Sequence record: OL964745.1 | Reading direction: 5' to 3' (one strand) | DNA: 64,000 nt | Origin: Escherichia phage T4 | Part shown: positions 5,431 to 62,052 of the stretch, one piece after another | Layout of the letters: every line of letters begins with the position of its first letter | Position numbering within the stretch: position 1 is the stretch's first letter | The notes under the pieces: model-generated | Seen by the model: only the letters and a program-made list of their open reading frames with translations | The model's database searches: none | What the model was told of the DNA's origin: nothing | Made by a program: the position numbers and the translations under genes

Positions 5431-5543
5431 AATTTTCTCTTTAGTTTAAGGTAATAAAGCCTTTTAGTTCGGCATAGGATTTTATTATCCTCAGTAGCTA
5501 TGGTGTTATAGTACCACAACTAACCGAGGAAGTAAACAACTTT

Positions 5544-11174: not shown

Positions 11175-11327
11175 GTGATTTCCTTTTGCCTACTAATGGA
11201 CCGTCAGGAATTTTATTTTCCTGGATATATTTCTCATTTTCTTCCATCATTTTACTGCCAATTTTAAGAAGCAAATCCATTGCTTCATTTGCTTTTGCTT
11301 TAGCTTCTTCTAACGTCATATCTTTGT

Positions 11328-11531
11328 TCATGATTTATCACCATAGATGTCTCTCATCAATTTAAGCGCTGAGCGTTCTAGTTTCTTTTCTTTCTCAGCA
11401 CTAATCATTGATTTCATCCATTCTTCTGATTCATTCTGCATTTCTTTATTTGCTTGTTCAACCCAACCGTCATCAATATACATTGAGTTTGGTCTATTGA
11501 ACCATTCAAGCATCTTCTTCAGAACTTTCAT
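11328..11531 (-). CDS. hypothetical protein (67 aa)
   Basis: ORF track. Confidence 0.4.
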
Positions 11532-11805
11532 TCGTTTTACCTAAAACAATAGTAGGAGCATCGTCAAATTTATGAATTTTTAGCAAATTTGGATTTAAAT
11601 TATTCCATAAAGAGGTAATAAAATATGATAGCGCACTTTCGTCCGTAATTATAAATTTATTTCCTTTATCTATTTTCCAATCATATATTGAATCATATGA
11701 ATAGAAGGATAACGGTTTATTATTATAATATGCTTCAGCAACATCAATAGTTAGATTTAGTAAATGCTTGAATTGCCATAAATGGAGAATTTTGTACAGT
11801 TTCAA
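11506..11805 (-). CDS. hypothetical protein (99 aa); may be the 3' part of a frameshifted gene
   Basis: Overlaps the next ORF by 62 nt in another frame. Confidence 0.35.
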
Positions 11806-12639: not shown

Positions 12640-12882
12640 TTAACCAGTTACTTTCCACAAATCTTCATTTGCAGCAATCCATTCAGTACGTTGATTTTCT
12701 TCATATACTGTAGAATATGCTGCTTTTTCTGAAGGGAATGTCTGGTAATGAGCGCCAGAAATTTTGTGAACGTCAGAATAAAGAGGGAAAGCTACAGAAA
12801 TTTCCTTTCCTTCAATTTTCTTATTTCCATCTAATTTCTGCTCAAATGTTTTGATATTAACATAACCGCGAGTACTAGCCAT
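12640..12882 (-). CDS. soc: small outer capsid protein Soc
   Basis: 80-aa ORF MASTRGYVNIKTFEQKLDGNKKIEG... matches T4 Soc as recalled. Confidence 0.95.
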   Translation of the reverse strand: MASTRGYVNIKTFEQKLDGNKKIEGKEISVAFPLYSDVHKISGAHYQTFPSEKAAYSTVYEENQRTEWIAANEDLWKVTG

Positions 12883-12914
12883 GTAATTCTCCTTTATTTA
12901 AATTACATGATTAT

Positions 12915-13505
12915 TTATACATCTTCTTTTCTGAATAAGTAAATTAAATTCTTAAGAGCCGAACTTGTTACATCATATTTTCCTTTAAGCGCCTTTACAA
13001 CCGGGCCTGTTGCTGGTTTACCTAAAGAAACCCATAACTCGTGTATTTCGCTTTTAAGTGGTTCATGCCAATGCGGTGCTTTTCTTTGCGCCCTTGAAGT
13101 TCCTTCTGAAATCTTTTTATTTCCGCCATTCGAATAAAACTTTTTCATTACTTCAGATTGCCGAGCTTTTCTTTCTGCCCTATTTTGGGCTATACGTTGT
13201 GAATTCTTCATCCGAGTTTTTGTTTCAGGATTGTTTAATCTAAGTTTATGTTCTAATCGTTGTTGCTCAGTCCATTTTCTTCCTTCTCCACCCTGACCAC
13301 CAGGAGAAATATTAATGCAAGTATCTGGGTGTTTACGTTTTAATGCAGATTAGCTCACGTTCAACTTCATATGATTTTTCTCTAGAACCATGGCATTTTG
13401 ACCATCGTATTTTATAATTATCCATACTTACGATATATGTTCCATAGTATTTTACCTGAACCCGGATATTTATCATTATATGGATTTACAATAAATGATT
13501 CATGT
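12915..13505 (-). pseudogene. segF: segF-like homing endonuclease remnant in at least three frames
   Basis: Fragments ..YPGSGKILWNIYRKYG*, MDNYKIRWSKCHGSREKSYEVERELICIKT*, and a 144-codon C-terminal frame with ISPGGQGGEGRKWTEQQRLEHK; resemble SegA/SegB. No intact GIY-YIG N-terminus. Confidence 0.45.
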
Positions 13506-13514
13506 TTCCCAGCG

Positions 13515-13540
13515 TACCAAAAGACGCCTTTCGGCGTCCT
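13515..13540 (-). terminator. hairpin terminator after gene 56
   Basis: Minus RNA GACGCC-GAAA-GGCGUC followed by UUUUGG. Confidence 0.55.
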
Positions 13541-13572
13541 AACTTTTACTATATGTTCTATAAAATTTTTGT

Positions 13573-14103
13573 TTAATATCCATTATCTTGACGTTCAAAA
13601 TTATGTTTGTTCTTCAGATAATAAAGTTTAAAGATTTCTTCCGCATTCATTCCAAGGCCAACAAACATATTTAATACGAAATGAAATATATCCACAAGCT
13701 CAAATTTAATTTCGAGCTGGTCTTCGGGGGACATTTCATCAATGCGTTTTTCTTGCGCTTCAATATAACGTGCTTTCCATTTTTTCCATACAGCAGAAGC
13801 TTCTTTTTCACCACGTGACATTTCACCAAGAGAAGTCAGAAGTTCGCGGAATTCATCATCAATACAGTCTTTTTGTTCACGCATCCAAGAAACAACATCA
13901 CCGGCAGTTTCTAATTTATCTGGATGATAGCAGTATTCGCGGACATTAGCCAAACGAATCTGTAAAGACCGCTGCATATCAAGCATAACTTGCAGCGGAT
14001 CTTTTTCATCACCGAGAATATCCCAGTATTCATTTTGAGCTTTATCAACACCTTCGATCAAATGAGCACATTCATTAAAGTGAGCCATTAGTTTTCCTTT
14101 CAA
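13573..14103 (-). CDS. 56: dCTP/dUTP pyrophosphatase gp56 (MazG-like)
   Basis: 176-aa all-alpha ORF at the T4 gene 56 position. Confidence 0.8.
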   Translation of the reverse strand: MKGKLMAHFNECAHLIEGVDKAQNEYWDILGDEKDPLQVMLDMQRSLQIRLANVREYCYHPDKLETAGDVVSWMREQKDCIDDEFRELLTSLGEMSRGEKEASAVWKKWKARYIEAQEKRIDEMSPEDQLEIKFELVDIFHFVLNMFVGLGMNAEEIFKLYYLKNKHNFERQDNGY

Positions 14104-14123: not shown

Positions 14124-14920
<797 letters not shown>

Positions 14921-15220: not shown

Positions 15221-16249
15221 TTAAATCTTAGCATATTTAGATAGCCGCATTTTAGCCATTAACCCCTGGGCAATATTATTTTTCATATATTCCATAATTT
15301 GTTCAGGGGTTGCACCTTCCTTTCTAATCATATCATTAACATCTTTTGATTTCCAGGGAGATTTATCCCAAAACATAACCCTTTCTCCTGCATCAACTAA
15401 TTTAGTCATTCGTTTAATAGTGTCAGGGTGACGAGGTTCATTATCTAAGACCCACACACGTCTATCTTTAAATGGAACAACTTCTAGGTCTAATTGACCG
15501 CCCGTAATAGCTATACCATTTTCAATAAAAAGTGAATCTATAGGTCCTTCTAGAACATATACATCACCATCTTTAACTCGTTCGACTCCATAGATTTTTG
15601 TTGCCTCAGGATAAGCTTTGATGGTGATATATTTTTGAGGAGCATCTTTCTTTAATGCACGTCCTTGAAAAGACTCAGCTTTTCCATTAGCATTATAAAT
15701 TGGAATAACAAGACGAGGCTCAGAAATTTCCTTTTTGTATGTTCCCGGTGCTATGCTATTAACTAATTTAGGCCATTCGGTTGTAAACCAAAGATATTTC
15801 CATTTATCCTTTGGAATACAACGAGCTTTTACGTATTTTATAATTGGATGGTCTTCCGCCAGTTTATCTAATCTAACACATGACGGAAGAGATTTAATTA
15901 TTTTCTTCTCGGGTTGTTTAGGAAGTTCTTTAGGTTTTTCTATTGGACGACTTTTACCTTTTTCTTTTCTTATTTCAAAGATATACTCACGATATAAATC
16001 GGGTTCAAACTCCTTTAAATATATTCCGATTGGTGCATGATAGTTACAGTTATAACAATGAATATTTCCTTCATTATTATCACCATAATACCATCCACGG
16101 GCTTTATTCTGGTCGGTTTTTGAATCTCCACAAACAGGGCATCTAAACCGTAATTTAAAAGTTGAACTATTATTTACTTGTGTGAATTTAGGTAAATGAG
16201 CTAATGCACGGTATGCAAACTCATTATCAATCCAAGGTATTGATGACAT
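15221..16249 (-). CDS. 61: DNA primase gp61
   Basis: 342-aa ORF with N-terminal zinc ribbon (CPVCGDS...CYNC) and TOPRIM-like region. Confidence 0.92.
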   Translation of the reverse strand: MSSIPWIDNEFAYRALAHLPKFTQVNNSSTFKLRFRCPVCGDSKTDQNKARGWYYGDNNEGNIHCYNCNYHAPIGIYLKEFEPDLYREYIFEIRKEKGKSRPIEKPKELPKQPEKKIIKSLPSCVRLDKLAEDHPIIKYVKARCIPKDKWKYLWFTTEWPKLVNSIAPGTYKKEISEPRLVIPIYNANGKAESFQGRALKKDAPQKYITIKAYPEATKIYGVERVKDGDVYVLEGPIDSLFIENGIAITGGQLDLEVVPFKDRRVWVLDNEPRHPDTIKRMTKLVDAGERVMFWDKSPWKSKDVNDMIRKEGATPEQIMEYMKNNIAQGLMAKMRLSKYAKI

Positions 16250-16251
16250 TT

Positions 16252-16416
16252 TTACTCTTCTTTTTCTTTAGATTCCTCTTTTTTCTTTTTAGGAATCTGT
16301 TCAGGACCTTTATTTACTACAGCGCCTGATGTTGTTCCAGTAGAGATATTTTCAGGATTACCACCTGAATCTCCAGCGACCATATCTTCTTTGATAAATT
16401 CTTTAAATGTTTTCAT
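16252..16416 (-). CDS. small protein (54 aa), 61.1-like
   Basis: Hand translation MKTFKEFIKEDMVAGDSGGNPENIS...KKKKEESKEKEE. Confidence 0.4.
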   Translation of the reverse strand: MKTFKEFIKEDMVAGDSGGNPENISTGTTSGAVVNKGPEQIPKKKKEESKEKEE

Positions 16417-24310: not shown

Positions 24311-24385
24311 ATCCGTATCAGTAGTTGATAGTTGTATAGTACCATGGAAGAACAGTCTTGTAAACAGTTTTGTGAAAAAATTTTT
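24305..24385 (-). repeat. conserved early promoter plus 5' leader element
   Basis: About 80-bp element also at 49601..49675, 60773..60862, 4347..4440, 48166..48225, 63647..63715; minus-strand core GTTTAC...GGTACTATACAACTATCAACTA...GGAG. Confidence 0.55.
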
Positions 24386-24447
24386 AGGGAATCCAAAGGG
24401 TCCAGAATCATCTCTTTTTCATAAGTATAGATTTATATTACTTGTAT

Positions 24448-35158: not shown

Positions 35159-35940
35159 CTATAAAACGCTACGAATAGGCCCAAACATATCCATAAGCAA
35201 TTTTGCTTTTTCCAGATTGCACTTTTTAATATTAGACATGCATCCTTTAACGGATACAGCTGCGTCTTTAATTCTAGGAAATACTCGTAATAATTTTCCA
35301 GTAGTATCATATTGAAATACTGGCACATTTCTTTTCTGAGTTATCCCACGTAGATTTAGACATTTTTTGTTTAGTTGCATTAGACATCCTAGAGGGCTTT
35401 CCTATGTTATCAGAATAATATTTCCATTGAAATCCTCCAGCGGTTTTCCTTTTACCATCTACACATTGTTTAATTGAAGTTGAACAGCTATGACATATCT
35501 TCTGCAGCATCTGTAATACATCTATATTTGCGAATAAAATTTCCATTTAAATCATATTGATAAATTGGTTTTCCAGCATTTCGTCTAGCGTTAGACATGT
35601 ATTTATTATCATCTTTCCAGAACTCTTTCATGCTTTCCGATATTGAAGAAGATACAGCTGTTTTAATCCATCCATACATTATTATTTAGTCTTGTTCCGT
35701 CAGAACTATAACATCATACGAATAGCTAAAGCCAATTTAGGAAGTCTATAAATTTTAAATAATAAATGCGCGGTAAAATGTTCTTCTGGTGTCAAAAGAA
35801 CTAAATTAGTTTTATCATCTGTACCACCCATACATCTAGGAATTATATGATGTGTTTCAGTATAGTATGTCAAAAGACTTTTATCATTGCCTCTGTTTAG
35901 TCCTTTTTCGATCAGTAAATTATATGTTTAAATAATTCAT
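35159..35940 (-). pseudogene. mobB: HNH homing endonuclease remnant with tandem DNA-binding repeats (mobB-like)
   Basis: ATG at 35940 (MNYLNI*), then HNH motif TETHHIIPRCMGGTDDKTNLVLLTPEEHFTAHLL in another frame; three track ORFs carry repeats PIYQYDLNGNFIRKYRCITDAAEDM and PVFQYDTTGKLLRVFPRIKDAAV. Confidence 0.5.
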
Positions 35941-35967
35941 TTTAGTTTATTTTACCAAAAAATTTAT

Positions 35968-35992
35968 AAAGCAATAGGAGCCGAAGCTCCTA
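35968..35992 (-). terminator. UUCG hairpin
   Basis: Minus RNA GGAGC-UUCG-GCUCC. Confidence 0.4.
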
Positions 35993-44499: not shown

Positions 44500-44900
44500 T
44501 TCACGAAGGCTAATTACGAGTTTATATCCTTCCCAACCGCATATTCTTAAAAGGATATGTATGAATTTCTACTGTTTCCATACAAAGTAATGCGGTCTCT
44601 AATTGACGAGTTAGTGCTAGCAATTGAGAAAAATTTATTAATATTCTTTTGGTTAGTTTCTGGTGTAAAAAATCCATAATTCACAAATAGATACTTTATT
44701 TTTATCAAGTTCATATTCTTTTATGATAATCATATCAGAAGCCAAAGGATGAATTTGACGATAATCGCCAACATAATTTAGAAGCTGATTTTAGAATTTG
44801 CTTCTTGAAAAGTCTGAAATTACTAATCCAACGACGAGTAAAAATATTCTCAGGGTCTTCTTTATTATTGAGATGATAAGAATTAACATCACCGAACCAA

Positions 44901-45155
44901 TTATCCTACTACATCTTTAGTTCGTTTAATTTCTTTCCCAAAATTACCAAGAATATCCCGATTAACCAAATATGAAAGAAGACGAGACTCTTTAAAGGTT
45001 TTCTTGATAACATCTTTATCTACACGGCTAGAAATTTTACGAATTTCATGAATAAATTTAGTAGAAGAAACAATACTTGCATCAACACTATTGAGCCACT
45101 GATTGATAATAGAAAGAACGCTATTTTGGCCAAACATCGGTATAGCTATCATCAA
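44901..45155 (-). CDS. hypothetical protein (84 aa)
   Basis: ORF track. Confidence 0.35.
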   Translation of the reverse strand: MMIAIPMFGQNSVLSIINQWLNSVDASIVSSTKFIHEIRKISSRVDKDVIKKTFKESRLLSYLVNRDILGNFGKEIKRTKDVVG

Positions 45156-45221
45156 TAACGCTATTGAATGATTTGATATTCGTTACGAGTCATATTAATC
45201 TCCTCAGTAGAAAGTAAGAAC

Positions 45222-52962: not shown

Positions 52963-53154
52963 CTACATGCTGTTTACGACCTTTCTTATCAATAAAGGTA
53001 TATTCAACGAATGTTCCAATGTAGTCTTATCTACATCATGTGGACTATTAATTGGACATTTAGTGCGACAAATGCGTTCCCATTGACGAATAATTACTGC
53101 CTTATTCTTTGGGTCATATGGATGTGGATAATGTATATTCATAATAGTTCCCAA
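52963..53154 (-). CDS. hypothetical protein (63 aa)
   Basis: ORF track. Confidence 0.35.
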   Translation of the reverse strand: MGTIMNIHYPHPYDPKNKAVIIRQWERICRTKCPINSPHDVDKTTLEHSLNIPLLIRKVVNSM

Positions 53155-53571
53155 TCAACAATCACAATTTCTAATTTAGAGGAATATGTATCTAAAATCC
53201 CCTCAATAATATCCCAGTTCCCTTTACCTATGCCTGCACCAATCCTAGGCATATAGATTGTAGGTTTAATCAGTTTATTTTCACCAAACTCATTTAATTC
53301 TAACATACAATTCATTAAAGCGGAATACTCAATTTGGCCCTGGTTGAAATTGAGTATAAAGATTGAAGCAGTAAGCTTTATGAGTCCTAAAGTATTTTTC
53401 ATAGACTGAGTAAGAACCGAGTTTAGTTACATCACCCCATTCAGTCTGTAATTTATCAGCTTCCAAAATTTTAGGGAAAGCTTTGGTTAATTGACCCGCT
53501 ACGCCTGAACCCATAGTATGAAAACAATTATCCATGTGCAATATTTTTACCTTCAGCGAAAAGGGCGACAA
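53139..53571 (-). pseudogene. macro-domain-like protein split into two overlapping frames
   Basis: 53329..53571 carries HTMGSGVAGQLTKAFP; 53139..53402 carries IYMPRIGAGIGKGNWDIIEGIL; 74-nt overlap in different frames. Confidence 0.4.
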
Positions 53572-53593
53572 TATCGCCCTTGATATTTTACAA

Positions 53594-56656: not shown

Positions 56657-57620
<964 letters not shown>

Positions 57621-60502: not shown

Positions 60503-60829
60503 TTATTTCATATTATTGAAATATTCTTCTGCGATTTCGTCGTTATCATGGTAAACTTTAGAAGACAGTTTAACATAACTTTCAGCAGTGAACATGTTAA
60601 TCACAACCTTTACAGTATACCACTGACCGTCTTCATTACCCATTACTGCGTAAGTTTCAAACATCGGATGGTCAGGACCGATAACTTTAATATCATTCAC
60701 CGTACGACCGAAATCTTCTGAAACACATTTCATAAAGAAGTTGAAAAGTTCACCGTAATTATCCATTTTATTCTCCAAGTTATTTTCTGTATCAGTAGTT
60801 GATAGTTGTATAGTACCATGGAAGAACAA
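60503..60829 (-). CDS. hypothetical protein (108 aa)
   Basis: ORF track. Confidence 0.4.
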   Translation of the reverse strand: MFFHGTIQLSTTDTENNLENKMDNYGELFNFFMKCVSEDFGRTVNDIKVIGPDHPMFETYAVMGNEDGQWYTVKVVINMFTAESYVKLSSKVYHDNDEIAEEYFNNMK

Positions 60830-61039
60830 GGATGTAAACAGTTTTGTGAAAAAATTTTTAAAAAGTTTTAGGGAATTCTAGGGCGGAGAGGGGCAATTAA
60901 AAGATAGGATAATATATTATAAAGGGTATAAACTAAATGATGCCTAGAGAGGTCTGGAAAGGCTTAGATACCAAAAAGCCCCAACCTTTCGGTCGGGGCT
61001 AAGCCTTGCGGCAACCTTGTCGGGGTTCCACCTGCCAAG

Positions 61040-61389: not shown

Positions 61390-61711
61390 GTAATTTAAAA
61401 TTTCATTTTTCGACCTTTAAACCATCCTTCTGGAATTGGGTCAGTTTTCTTAATACGTTTAGAAACTTTTTCATCTAATGAATGAATCCACATCATACCG
61501 AATTGGGAATTCTTTTCACCTTTCTGGTGATTATTTTTGGCGTGAGATTCTTTCATTTTATTAATAGTTTCAGGAGTATGATGCTTATTTAGATCTGCTA
61601 TTATTTAAAAATTTTTCCCTGTATTCAGGAGTTGACCACAAACGTTTAAATACATTTGAACCAATTTTACGATATTTTTCTTGAAGTAAAATATCATTTT
61701 CAAAACGTGAC

Positions 61712-62052
61712 TTAAACGATAGCTCCTTTTAAGCTAGCATCTTTCTTCTGGTTTAGCATTCCAGGAATATTTACATGATCCCATCCACCTTCACCGCCAA
61801 GTTTTAAATTATACACATCTGGTCTATTTAAAAACTCTTCTGTGACAATATTTTTCTCGGCTTCAAGCATAGATTCTTTATCGTCAAAATACTCTAATAT
61901 TTCTTTAGAAAAATTTTCTATACCATATTTATCTTGGGCTCTTTTTAATAATTTACCAGAACCCATATCCATCATCTAAATTTTCGGTAGAATGCACACC
62001 AATATAAATTTTATTATTAATTTTATTTGTTATTTTATAAGTGTAATAGAAC
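61712..62052 (-). pseudogene. segB: GIY-YIG homing endonuclease SegB-like, frameshifted, inside the tRNA cluster
   Basis: MFYYTYKITNKINNKIYIGVHSTENLDDGY then out of frame into MGSGKLLKRAQDKYG...YNLKLGGEGG (track ORF 61712..61975); TATATG reads TATG at about 61964-61967. Confidence 0.7.

Follow-up and report, generated by a model that had tools for sequence, protein, structure and literature searches.

The window, by which we mean the whole 64,000-nucleotide stretch of Escherichia phage T4 record OL964745.1 that was analysed, carries soc, segF, gene 56, dam and gene 61 on its minus strand in the same order as in T4. Within it, segF lies between gene 56 and soc and on the same strand as both, with a start that overlaps the end of gene 56 by a few base pairs (Table 1). 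When the segF region was aligned to positions 15606-16280 of NC_000866.4, 669 of 669 bases were identical and the only differences were three gaps of 2 bp each (6 bases missing), so the identity of this region with T4 segF is far beyond chance. An alignment to T4 segF had been proposed in an earlier note on this DNA, which described the region as a SegF-like endonuclease remnant extending from 12915 to 13505. A disrupted segF at the soc/gene 56 locus is what we find, but it is T4 segF itself, with only six bases missing and no sign of natural decay, and it extends to 13583.

The neighbours of segF are in good order. Gene 56 contains no indel and differs from the reference at a single base, a difference that it has in common with the laboratory stock. 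Just upstream of soc, and overlapping the segF stop codon (12915-12917), is the sequence TATAAATA (12913-12920, minus strand), which we take to be the T4 late-promoter consensus. This late-promoter-like sequence is intact, as are the gene 56 stop codon, the intrinsic terminator of segF and soc, and removal of the whole of segF would probably take the soc late promoter along with it.

Table 1. Positions, in the window, of segF and its parts, of its neighbours, and of the larger deletions and deletion clusters
Feature	Position	Strand	Remarks
soc (small outer capsid protein)	12640-12882	minus	intact
segF pseudogene	12915-13583	minus	669 nt vs 675 nt in wild type; ATG 13583-13581, TAA 12917-12915
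gene 56 (dCTPase)	13573-14088	minus	intact; stop 13575-13573; no indel
gene 56 end/segF start overlap	13573-13583	minus	11 bp; also in PMC2988022
Intrinsic terminator in segF 5' end	13521-13540	minus	GC-rich stem, GAAA loop, U tract ending UUUUGG
Lesion 1	13550-13554	minus	TATATAT -> TATAT, (AT)3 -> (AT)2; codons 11-12, 'GIY' strand; common to T4_583L
Lesion 2	13419-13421	minus	sense TTT -> T; codon 56 (F56); private to window
Lesion 3	13348-13351	minus	ATAT -> AT; codons 80-81, just after conserved ERE(L) motif; common to T4_583L
Stub from native start	13539-13583	minus	14 codons, MDIKQKFYRTYSKS then TAG; translation of window allele
Piece A	13551-13583	minus	wild-type codons 1-11, MDIKQKFYRTY; frame of ATG
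Piece B	13421-13549	minus	wild-type codons 13-55, VKVRTPKGVFWYAGKH...GSGKILWNIYRKYG; out of ATG frame
Piece C	13351-13419	minus	wild-type codons 57-79, NYKIRWSKCHGSREKSYEVEREL; third frame
Piece D	12915-13349	minus	wild-type codons 81-224 + stop; basic C-terminal part; ATG frame
motB.2, whole-gene deletion vs T4	junction 5479-5482		
mobC to nrdD/I-TevII deletion	junction 40057		~2.0 kb
nrdC.3 deletion	junction 44154/44155		~0.9 kb
nrdC.11 to mobD deletion	junction 49827/49828		~2.0 kb
vs.3 to vs.8 deletion	junction 54996/54997		~2.0 kb
Small-deletion cluster, mobB	35217-35973		
Small-deletion cluster, nrdC.4	44540-45175		
Small-deletion cluster, tk.4	53146-53582		
Small-deletion cluster, nudE	57233-57568		
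Small-deletion cluster, segB	61592-61964		

The three 2-bp deletions, lesions 1-3, split segF into four pieces that lie in three frames. The continuous 224-codon ORF is absent, a stop following codon 14, and lesion 2 makes GGA-TAA, which is a stop in the wild-type codon phase. Minus-strand translation reproduced the three peptides that had been quoted earlier from three frames between soc and gene 56, and the C-terminal piece of 144 codons was likewise given exactly, with a stop codon at its end (12915-13349). Because the three lesions together remove 3 x 2 = 6 bases, these last 144 codons regain the frame of the ATG, but the regained frame is without effect because stops come 0-5 codons after each lesion. 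One could still read the return to frame after six lost bases as programmed recoding, in which ribosomes would make three frame shifts and still yield SegF, much as they bypass part of T4 gene 60. The wild type needs no such recoding, however, the stops follow too closely on each lesion, and a sibling clone discussed below, T4_583L, has two of the lesions with a net loss of 4 bases, so we regard recoding as virtually inconceivable.

Two ORFs are left among the pieces. Piece C sits in a spurious 47-codon ORF (13333-13476), for which an exact-protein look-up matched no record, and inside piece D is a 98-codon ATG ORF (12915-13211) that is in principle translatable, though without the catalytic domain. 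The record of T4_583L (MZ375356.1) labels the same leftover 98-codon ORF, at 11278-11574 of that record, 'SegF homing endonuclease', and this label is misleading in that the catalytic domain is absent.

Wild-type SegF begins MDIKQKFYRTYIVKVRTPKGVFWYAGKH, and the whole of that sequence is still encoded in the window, over two frames. The first GIY-YIG beta-hairpin, which had been thought missing from the region, is coded at 13421-13583, beyond the end at 13505 that had been assigned to the remnant, and it is cut by lesion 1. The GIY-YIG elements are complete in the window DNA (TYIVKV...FWYAGKH...GSG...ERE) but divided among frames, piece B having both the 'YIG' strand and the GSG motif on board. 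In a BLASTP comparison with T4 SegA, wild-type SegF aligned over ~78 residues (E = 3e-5; 26% identity). The alignment brings the YxYxI / YYG-type strands, the GSG motif and the ERELx motif into register, and the lesions in the window fall between or within these aligned motifs. The N-terminal likeness of T4 SegA and SegB to SegF is distant, and their C-terminal halves do not align with it. PHROG 314, 'homing endonuclease', was matched by wild-type SegF (E = 1.5e-23) and also by piece B (E = 5.8e-5) and piece D (E = 5.2e-6). A Pfam scan returned no match for wild-type SegF (E <= 1) or for the three pieces, and a PDB sequence search with SegF returned nothing meaningful and no relative of solved structure. 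In PMC2988022, T4 segF is drawn as a hybrid endonuclease, coloured both GIY-YIG and HNH.

A terminator hairpin had been assigned to gene 56 and placed next to the remnant. The hairpin is actually part of segF itself, where it spans about codons 15-21, and it is unchanged from wild type. It is formed by the stem-loop AGGACGCC-GAAA-GGCGUCUU followed by UUGG, and by sequence it has the features of an intrinsic terminator, namely a GC-rich stem, a 4-nt loop and a U tract directly downstream. Folding of positions 13505-13560 gave -15.1 kcal/mol (z = -2.8), and the stem was also found by a pattern scan. segF has been described as a promoter-less cassette that is transcribed from upstream and overlaps gene 56 by 11 bp, and in segF as in mobE an intrinsic terminator is reported to sit within the 5' end of the coding sequence (PMC2988022). 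The hairpin in the window is this published anatomy and nothing new. mobE of T-even phages resembles segF in being a promoter-less endonuclease cassette with an early internal terminator that limits expression (PMC2988022); unlike segF, it belongs to the HNH family and lies at another locus (nrdA/nrdB).

T4 segF (NP_049645.1) is a free-standing GIY-YIG homing endonuclease gene, and the window gene has the same locus, strand, neighbours, overlap and terminator; it differs in that the 224-codon ORF is broken and a 14-codon stub is the expected product. In the passages of PMC2330249 and PMC2988022 that relay Belle et al. (2002), wild-type SegF is active, cuts T2-type gene 56 and causes the localised exclusion that the T2L gene 56 marker undergoes when T4 is crossed with T2L. 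Those passages bear out the statement, made before the present analysis, that T4 reportedly has an active SegF by which T2 gene 56 is excluded. On the window allele, ribosomes that start from the native ATG would halt after 14 codons, with the result that SegF is expected to be absent, and no piece that could be translated later would hold the whole GIY-YIG catalytic core. Judged from this allele, the clone should make no SegF, T2-type gene 56 would not be cut, and the T2 gene 56 marker should no longer undergo localised exclusion by SegF. The literature already covers segF, what it targets, the terminator within it and its part in T2 marker exclusion, and a near-identical broken allele is already in GenBank: the segF allele of T4_583L (MZ375356.1; PMC9825161) has lesions 1 and 3 and the same leftover 98-codon ORF as the window, but not the codon-56 lesion.

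The relation to T4_583L extends well beyond segF. The 1.7-kb stretch around segF is 99.4% identical to all T4 genome records, and its best match, at 99.6%, is T4_583L ('Mutant Escherichia phage T4 clone T4_583L'), a clone named by Yuan et al. (Nucleic Acids Res 2022; PMC9825161) in their genome-reduction study, CiPGr. In that study, T4 went through up to ~600 passages in E. coli with SpCas9 and a plasmid library that contained <=8 spacers per non-essential gene along with two 50-bp homology arms, which were designed for deleting either 100 bp or the whole gene ('cassette-gene') (PMC9825161). Position 1 of the window corresponds to T4 coordinate 2200, where the records of T4_583L and T4_3t3 (OL964735.1) begin as well. 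The latter record, 'Mutant T4 clone T4_3t3', looks like a CiPGr product as well, given its record start, its locus tags that cite T4583L and its 100-bp deletions. T4_3t3 is a clone from the same laboratory stock as the window, and its segF is intact, with 224 codons. Over 63.9 kb of shared sequence, the window differs from T4_3t3 by one genuine base substitution, 67 deletions of 1-4 bp and one 1-bp insertion.

Most of the small deletions of the window, including segF lesions 1 and 3, are common to T4_583L, but segF lesion 2 and a few other small deletions are private to the window, and the window retains segments that are gone from T4_583L, such as modA/modB. Because lesions are shared while others are private and segments are retained, the window represents a sibling of T4_583L that came out of the same evolving population, and not the same clone. 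To judge by the lesions and the record start that they have in common, the window is a T4 clone of the CiPGr lineage. Relative to T4_3t3, the window has also lost motB.2 and nrdC.3 as whole genes, an outcome to be expected from the 'cassette-gene' design, and it has three multi-gene deletions of ~2 kb each (Table 1). These larger deletions match the designed and large deletion kinds described for CiPGr T4 mutants.

We also considered whether the base substitutions of the window relative to NC_000866.4 arose in the lineage, and rejected this. In the segF-dam stretch, the part that was compared, T4_3t3 has the same substitutions, and T4_583L has nearly all of those elsewhere. Because these two clones carry them, the substitutions are differences between stock and reference and were not made in the lineage.

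In our judgment the flagged region is very probably T4 segF itself, which was inactivated in the laboratory, and quite recently, when three short A/T runs each lost 2 bp in independent events. A laboratory origin is indicated because there is one substitution in ~64 kb, segF is intact in T4_3t3, and lesions are common to T4_583L. A continuous ORF of ~224 codons, which according to the earlier note would argue against a remnant, is present in every other T4 record except T4_583L, but it is not in the window allele.

The tract shortened by lesion 1, at segF codons 10-12, varies in other sequences too. In a contig set that was found via the 98-codon ORF called as a separate gene and is thus biased towards broken alleles, (AT)2 occurs in four SRA-derived contigs, three of them ~98% identical to T4 segF (not T4) and one T4-identical, and (AT)4 occurs in one further SRA-derived contig. 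These contigs with (AT)2 or (AT)4 (loci L009, L010, L011, L015 and L016) have no other frameshift in segF. Of 48 finished phage genomes that hold the segment, 44 have (AT)3, and (AT)2 is found only in T4_583L. Scans of IMG/VR and of JGI metagenomes, for the tract and for the terminator sequence, gave zero matches and no segF. The (AT)n variation in other contigs fits a spontaneous origin of lesion 1, and slippage at the (AT)3 tract may recur in nature and switch segF on and off.

These data bear on the idea that the gene is a naturally decaying SegF-like remnant in a relative of T4, one that had lost its N-terminal GIY-YIG hairpin. Natural decay would account for pieces in three frames, and the SRA contigs with (AT)2 or (AT)4 place frameshifted segF also beyond the CiPGr GenBank records. 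However, the substitutions that would be expected from natural decay are absent, there being none in segF relative to T4 and one in ~64 kb relative to T4_3t3, and the sequence of the N-terminal hairpin is present. Furthermore, two of the three lesions are common to a laboratory mutant, T4_583L, which is alone among the 48 finished phage genomes in having the shortened tract, and all of this makes natural decay very improbable indeed. More generally, windows of this kind may stem from engineered or laboratory-evolved genomes, and 'pseudogene' calls in them are uninformative on natural evolution.

A separate contig, from SRR18506022 (L014), contains a T4-identical segF with a single GAA -> TAA change at Glu76, in the YEVEREL motif. 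This segF adjoins a Soc position that holds a 285-residue CBM_2-containing ORF, and a transposase. The contig appears to come from a further engineered T4 in which segF was knocked out.

The laboratory inactivation of segF that we favour can be set against the small deletions of the whole window. Among the 67 small deletions relative to T4_3t3, 47 remove 2 bp, 13 remove 3 bp, 3 remove 4 bp and 4 remove 1 bp, and 61 are purely A/T. In 43 of the 67, a very short tandem repeat is shortened by one unit, and about a dozen are TTT -> T or AAA -> A, so that these runs lose 2 bases and not the usual 1. Apart from A/T richness, no flanking sequence motif was found at the small deletions. None of the 67 hits an essential gene (39, 60, 56, 61, 41, 42, 43, 62, 44, 45, 46, 47, 55, e), an avoidance with P ~4e-7 relative to matched A/T 4-mer sites. 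The 58 coding deletions sit in 24 genes, and 79 other non-essential genes (29 kb) have none. mobB has the most deletions, with 10, followed by nrdC.4 with 8, tk.4 and nudE with 4 each, and segF, segB, dam, nrdC.1 and rI.1 with 3 each.

This distribution speaks to the concern that segF is truly intact in the clone and that the 2-bp gaps are errors of sequencing or assembly in A/T-rich micro-repeats. All the segF lesions are indeed in A/T micro-repeats, which are error-prone in some pipelines, and the CiPGr isolates were assembled de novo with SOAPdenovo. Yet all 67 deletions spare the essential genes and cluster in 24 dispensable ones, most of them recur in an independently assembled sibling while not occurring in T4_3t3, which was sequenced by the same group, and the CiPGr authors observed such deletions in population reads (PMC9825161). 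The chance of an artefact is therefore quite small, and the three segF deletions in this clone are most likely real.

For some of the small deletions, the CiPGr authors suggest CRISPR escape (PMC9825161). Applied to segF, escape would mean that each of the three lesions alters a protospacer or PAM used by a library sgRNA against the gene and was selected for because it blocks cleavage by Cas9. During its passage the lineage did face Cas9 and as many as eight spacers for each non-essential gene, one NGG protospacer includes lesion 1 at its positions 10-16, and the top genes have 8-10 hits, near the number of spacers per gene. But lesion 3 is in no NGG protospacer, lesion 2 is PAM-distal, at positions 16-18, and by position the segF lesions do not look like changes to the PAM or the PAM-proximal seed of a targeted NGG protospacer. 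In addition, lesion 1 is seen in contigs whose sequence background is not that of T4. The segF escapes documented in T4 under Cas9 are either substitutions within the protospacer or 87-bp deletions that arise by UvsX minihomology recombination (Wu et al., mBio 2021; PMC8262927). They share with the window the loss of a working segF during growth of T4 under Cas9 attack, but the deletions remove the protospacer and PAM between repeats of 3-7 nt, whereas the window lesions are 2-bp contractions for which contact with a protospacer is not needed.

The small deletions as a class show no enrichment near Cas9 cut sites. Their mean distance to the nearest NGG cut site is 10.1 nt, compared to 9.9 +/- 1.3 nt for matched A/T-run controls, and 64% of them fall within any protospacer plus PAM, compared to 66% of controls. 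Furthermore, 24 of the 67, segF lesion 3 among them, are outside every canonical NGG protospacer. A location of the small deletions at Cas9 cut sites or protospacers was accordingly rejected, there being no enrichment over either random or matched A/T-run controls, and the positional test does not support CRISPR escape as the cause of the whole class. For the three segF lesions in particular, we consider escape unlikely. We also rejected the idea that design or selection had favoured deletions with a stop codon close behind them, as 34% of them have a stop within one codon compared to 27% in controls.

Returning to inactivation of segF in the laboratory by independent deletions, we suggest that its lesions are members of a genome-wide class of deletions of 1-4 bp, nearly all A/T-only, that would have gathered over the passages in genes the phage can do without. 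We are less certain of the source of the small deletions; the likeliest is slippage of replication or repair at short A/T repeats, the products of which would be retained since the genes are dispensable under passage. The slippage possibly took place during repeated break-repair synthesis in genes targeted by Cas9. Slippage alone leaves two features unaccounted for, namely the excess of -2 over -1 deletions and the clustering of up to 10 deletions (<=10) per gene. No mutator change was found within the window in 43, 44, 45, 62, 41, 61, uvsX, 46, 47, dda or 49, all of which are identical to the laboratory stock. It is conceivable, although we hold it to be doubtful, that the segF lesions reflect an uncharacterised mutational process distinct from direct Cas9 escape and that, separately, the (AT)3 tract is a natural on/off slippage site. 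If there is such a process, its signature would be one-unit contractions of very short A/T repeats, mostly of 2 bp, in dispensable genes over hundreds of passages under multiplex Cas9, dense in some genes (10 in mobB), unrelated to NGG protospacers and accompanied by one genuine base substitution in ~64 kb; slippage in the course of repeated break-repair synthesis is a candidate cause. The point of remaining interest is this A/T-restricted deletion signature, with 2 bp as the commonest loss, to which PMC9825161 devotes one sentence.

The dam gene (14124-14918, minus strand) is also broken in the window. It has 2-bp deletions at ~14700 and ~14891, a 3-bp deletion in the start region (~14918) and a 4-bp AATT deletion at the 3' end (~14146), and the ORF pieces that are left span 14124-14663 and 14650-14838. 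The broken dam predicts that the clone would have no phage Dam (GATC) methylation.

Elsewhere in the window there is a 75-nt direct repeat whose copies are 93% identical, one at 24312-24386, between imm.1 and gene 43, and the other at 60786-60860, downstream of e.8. This repeat is also in wild-type T4.
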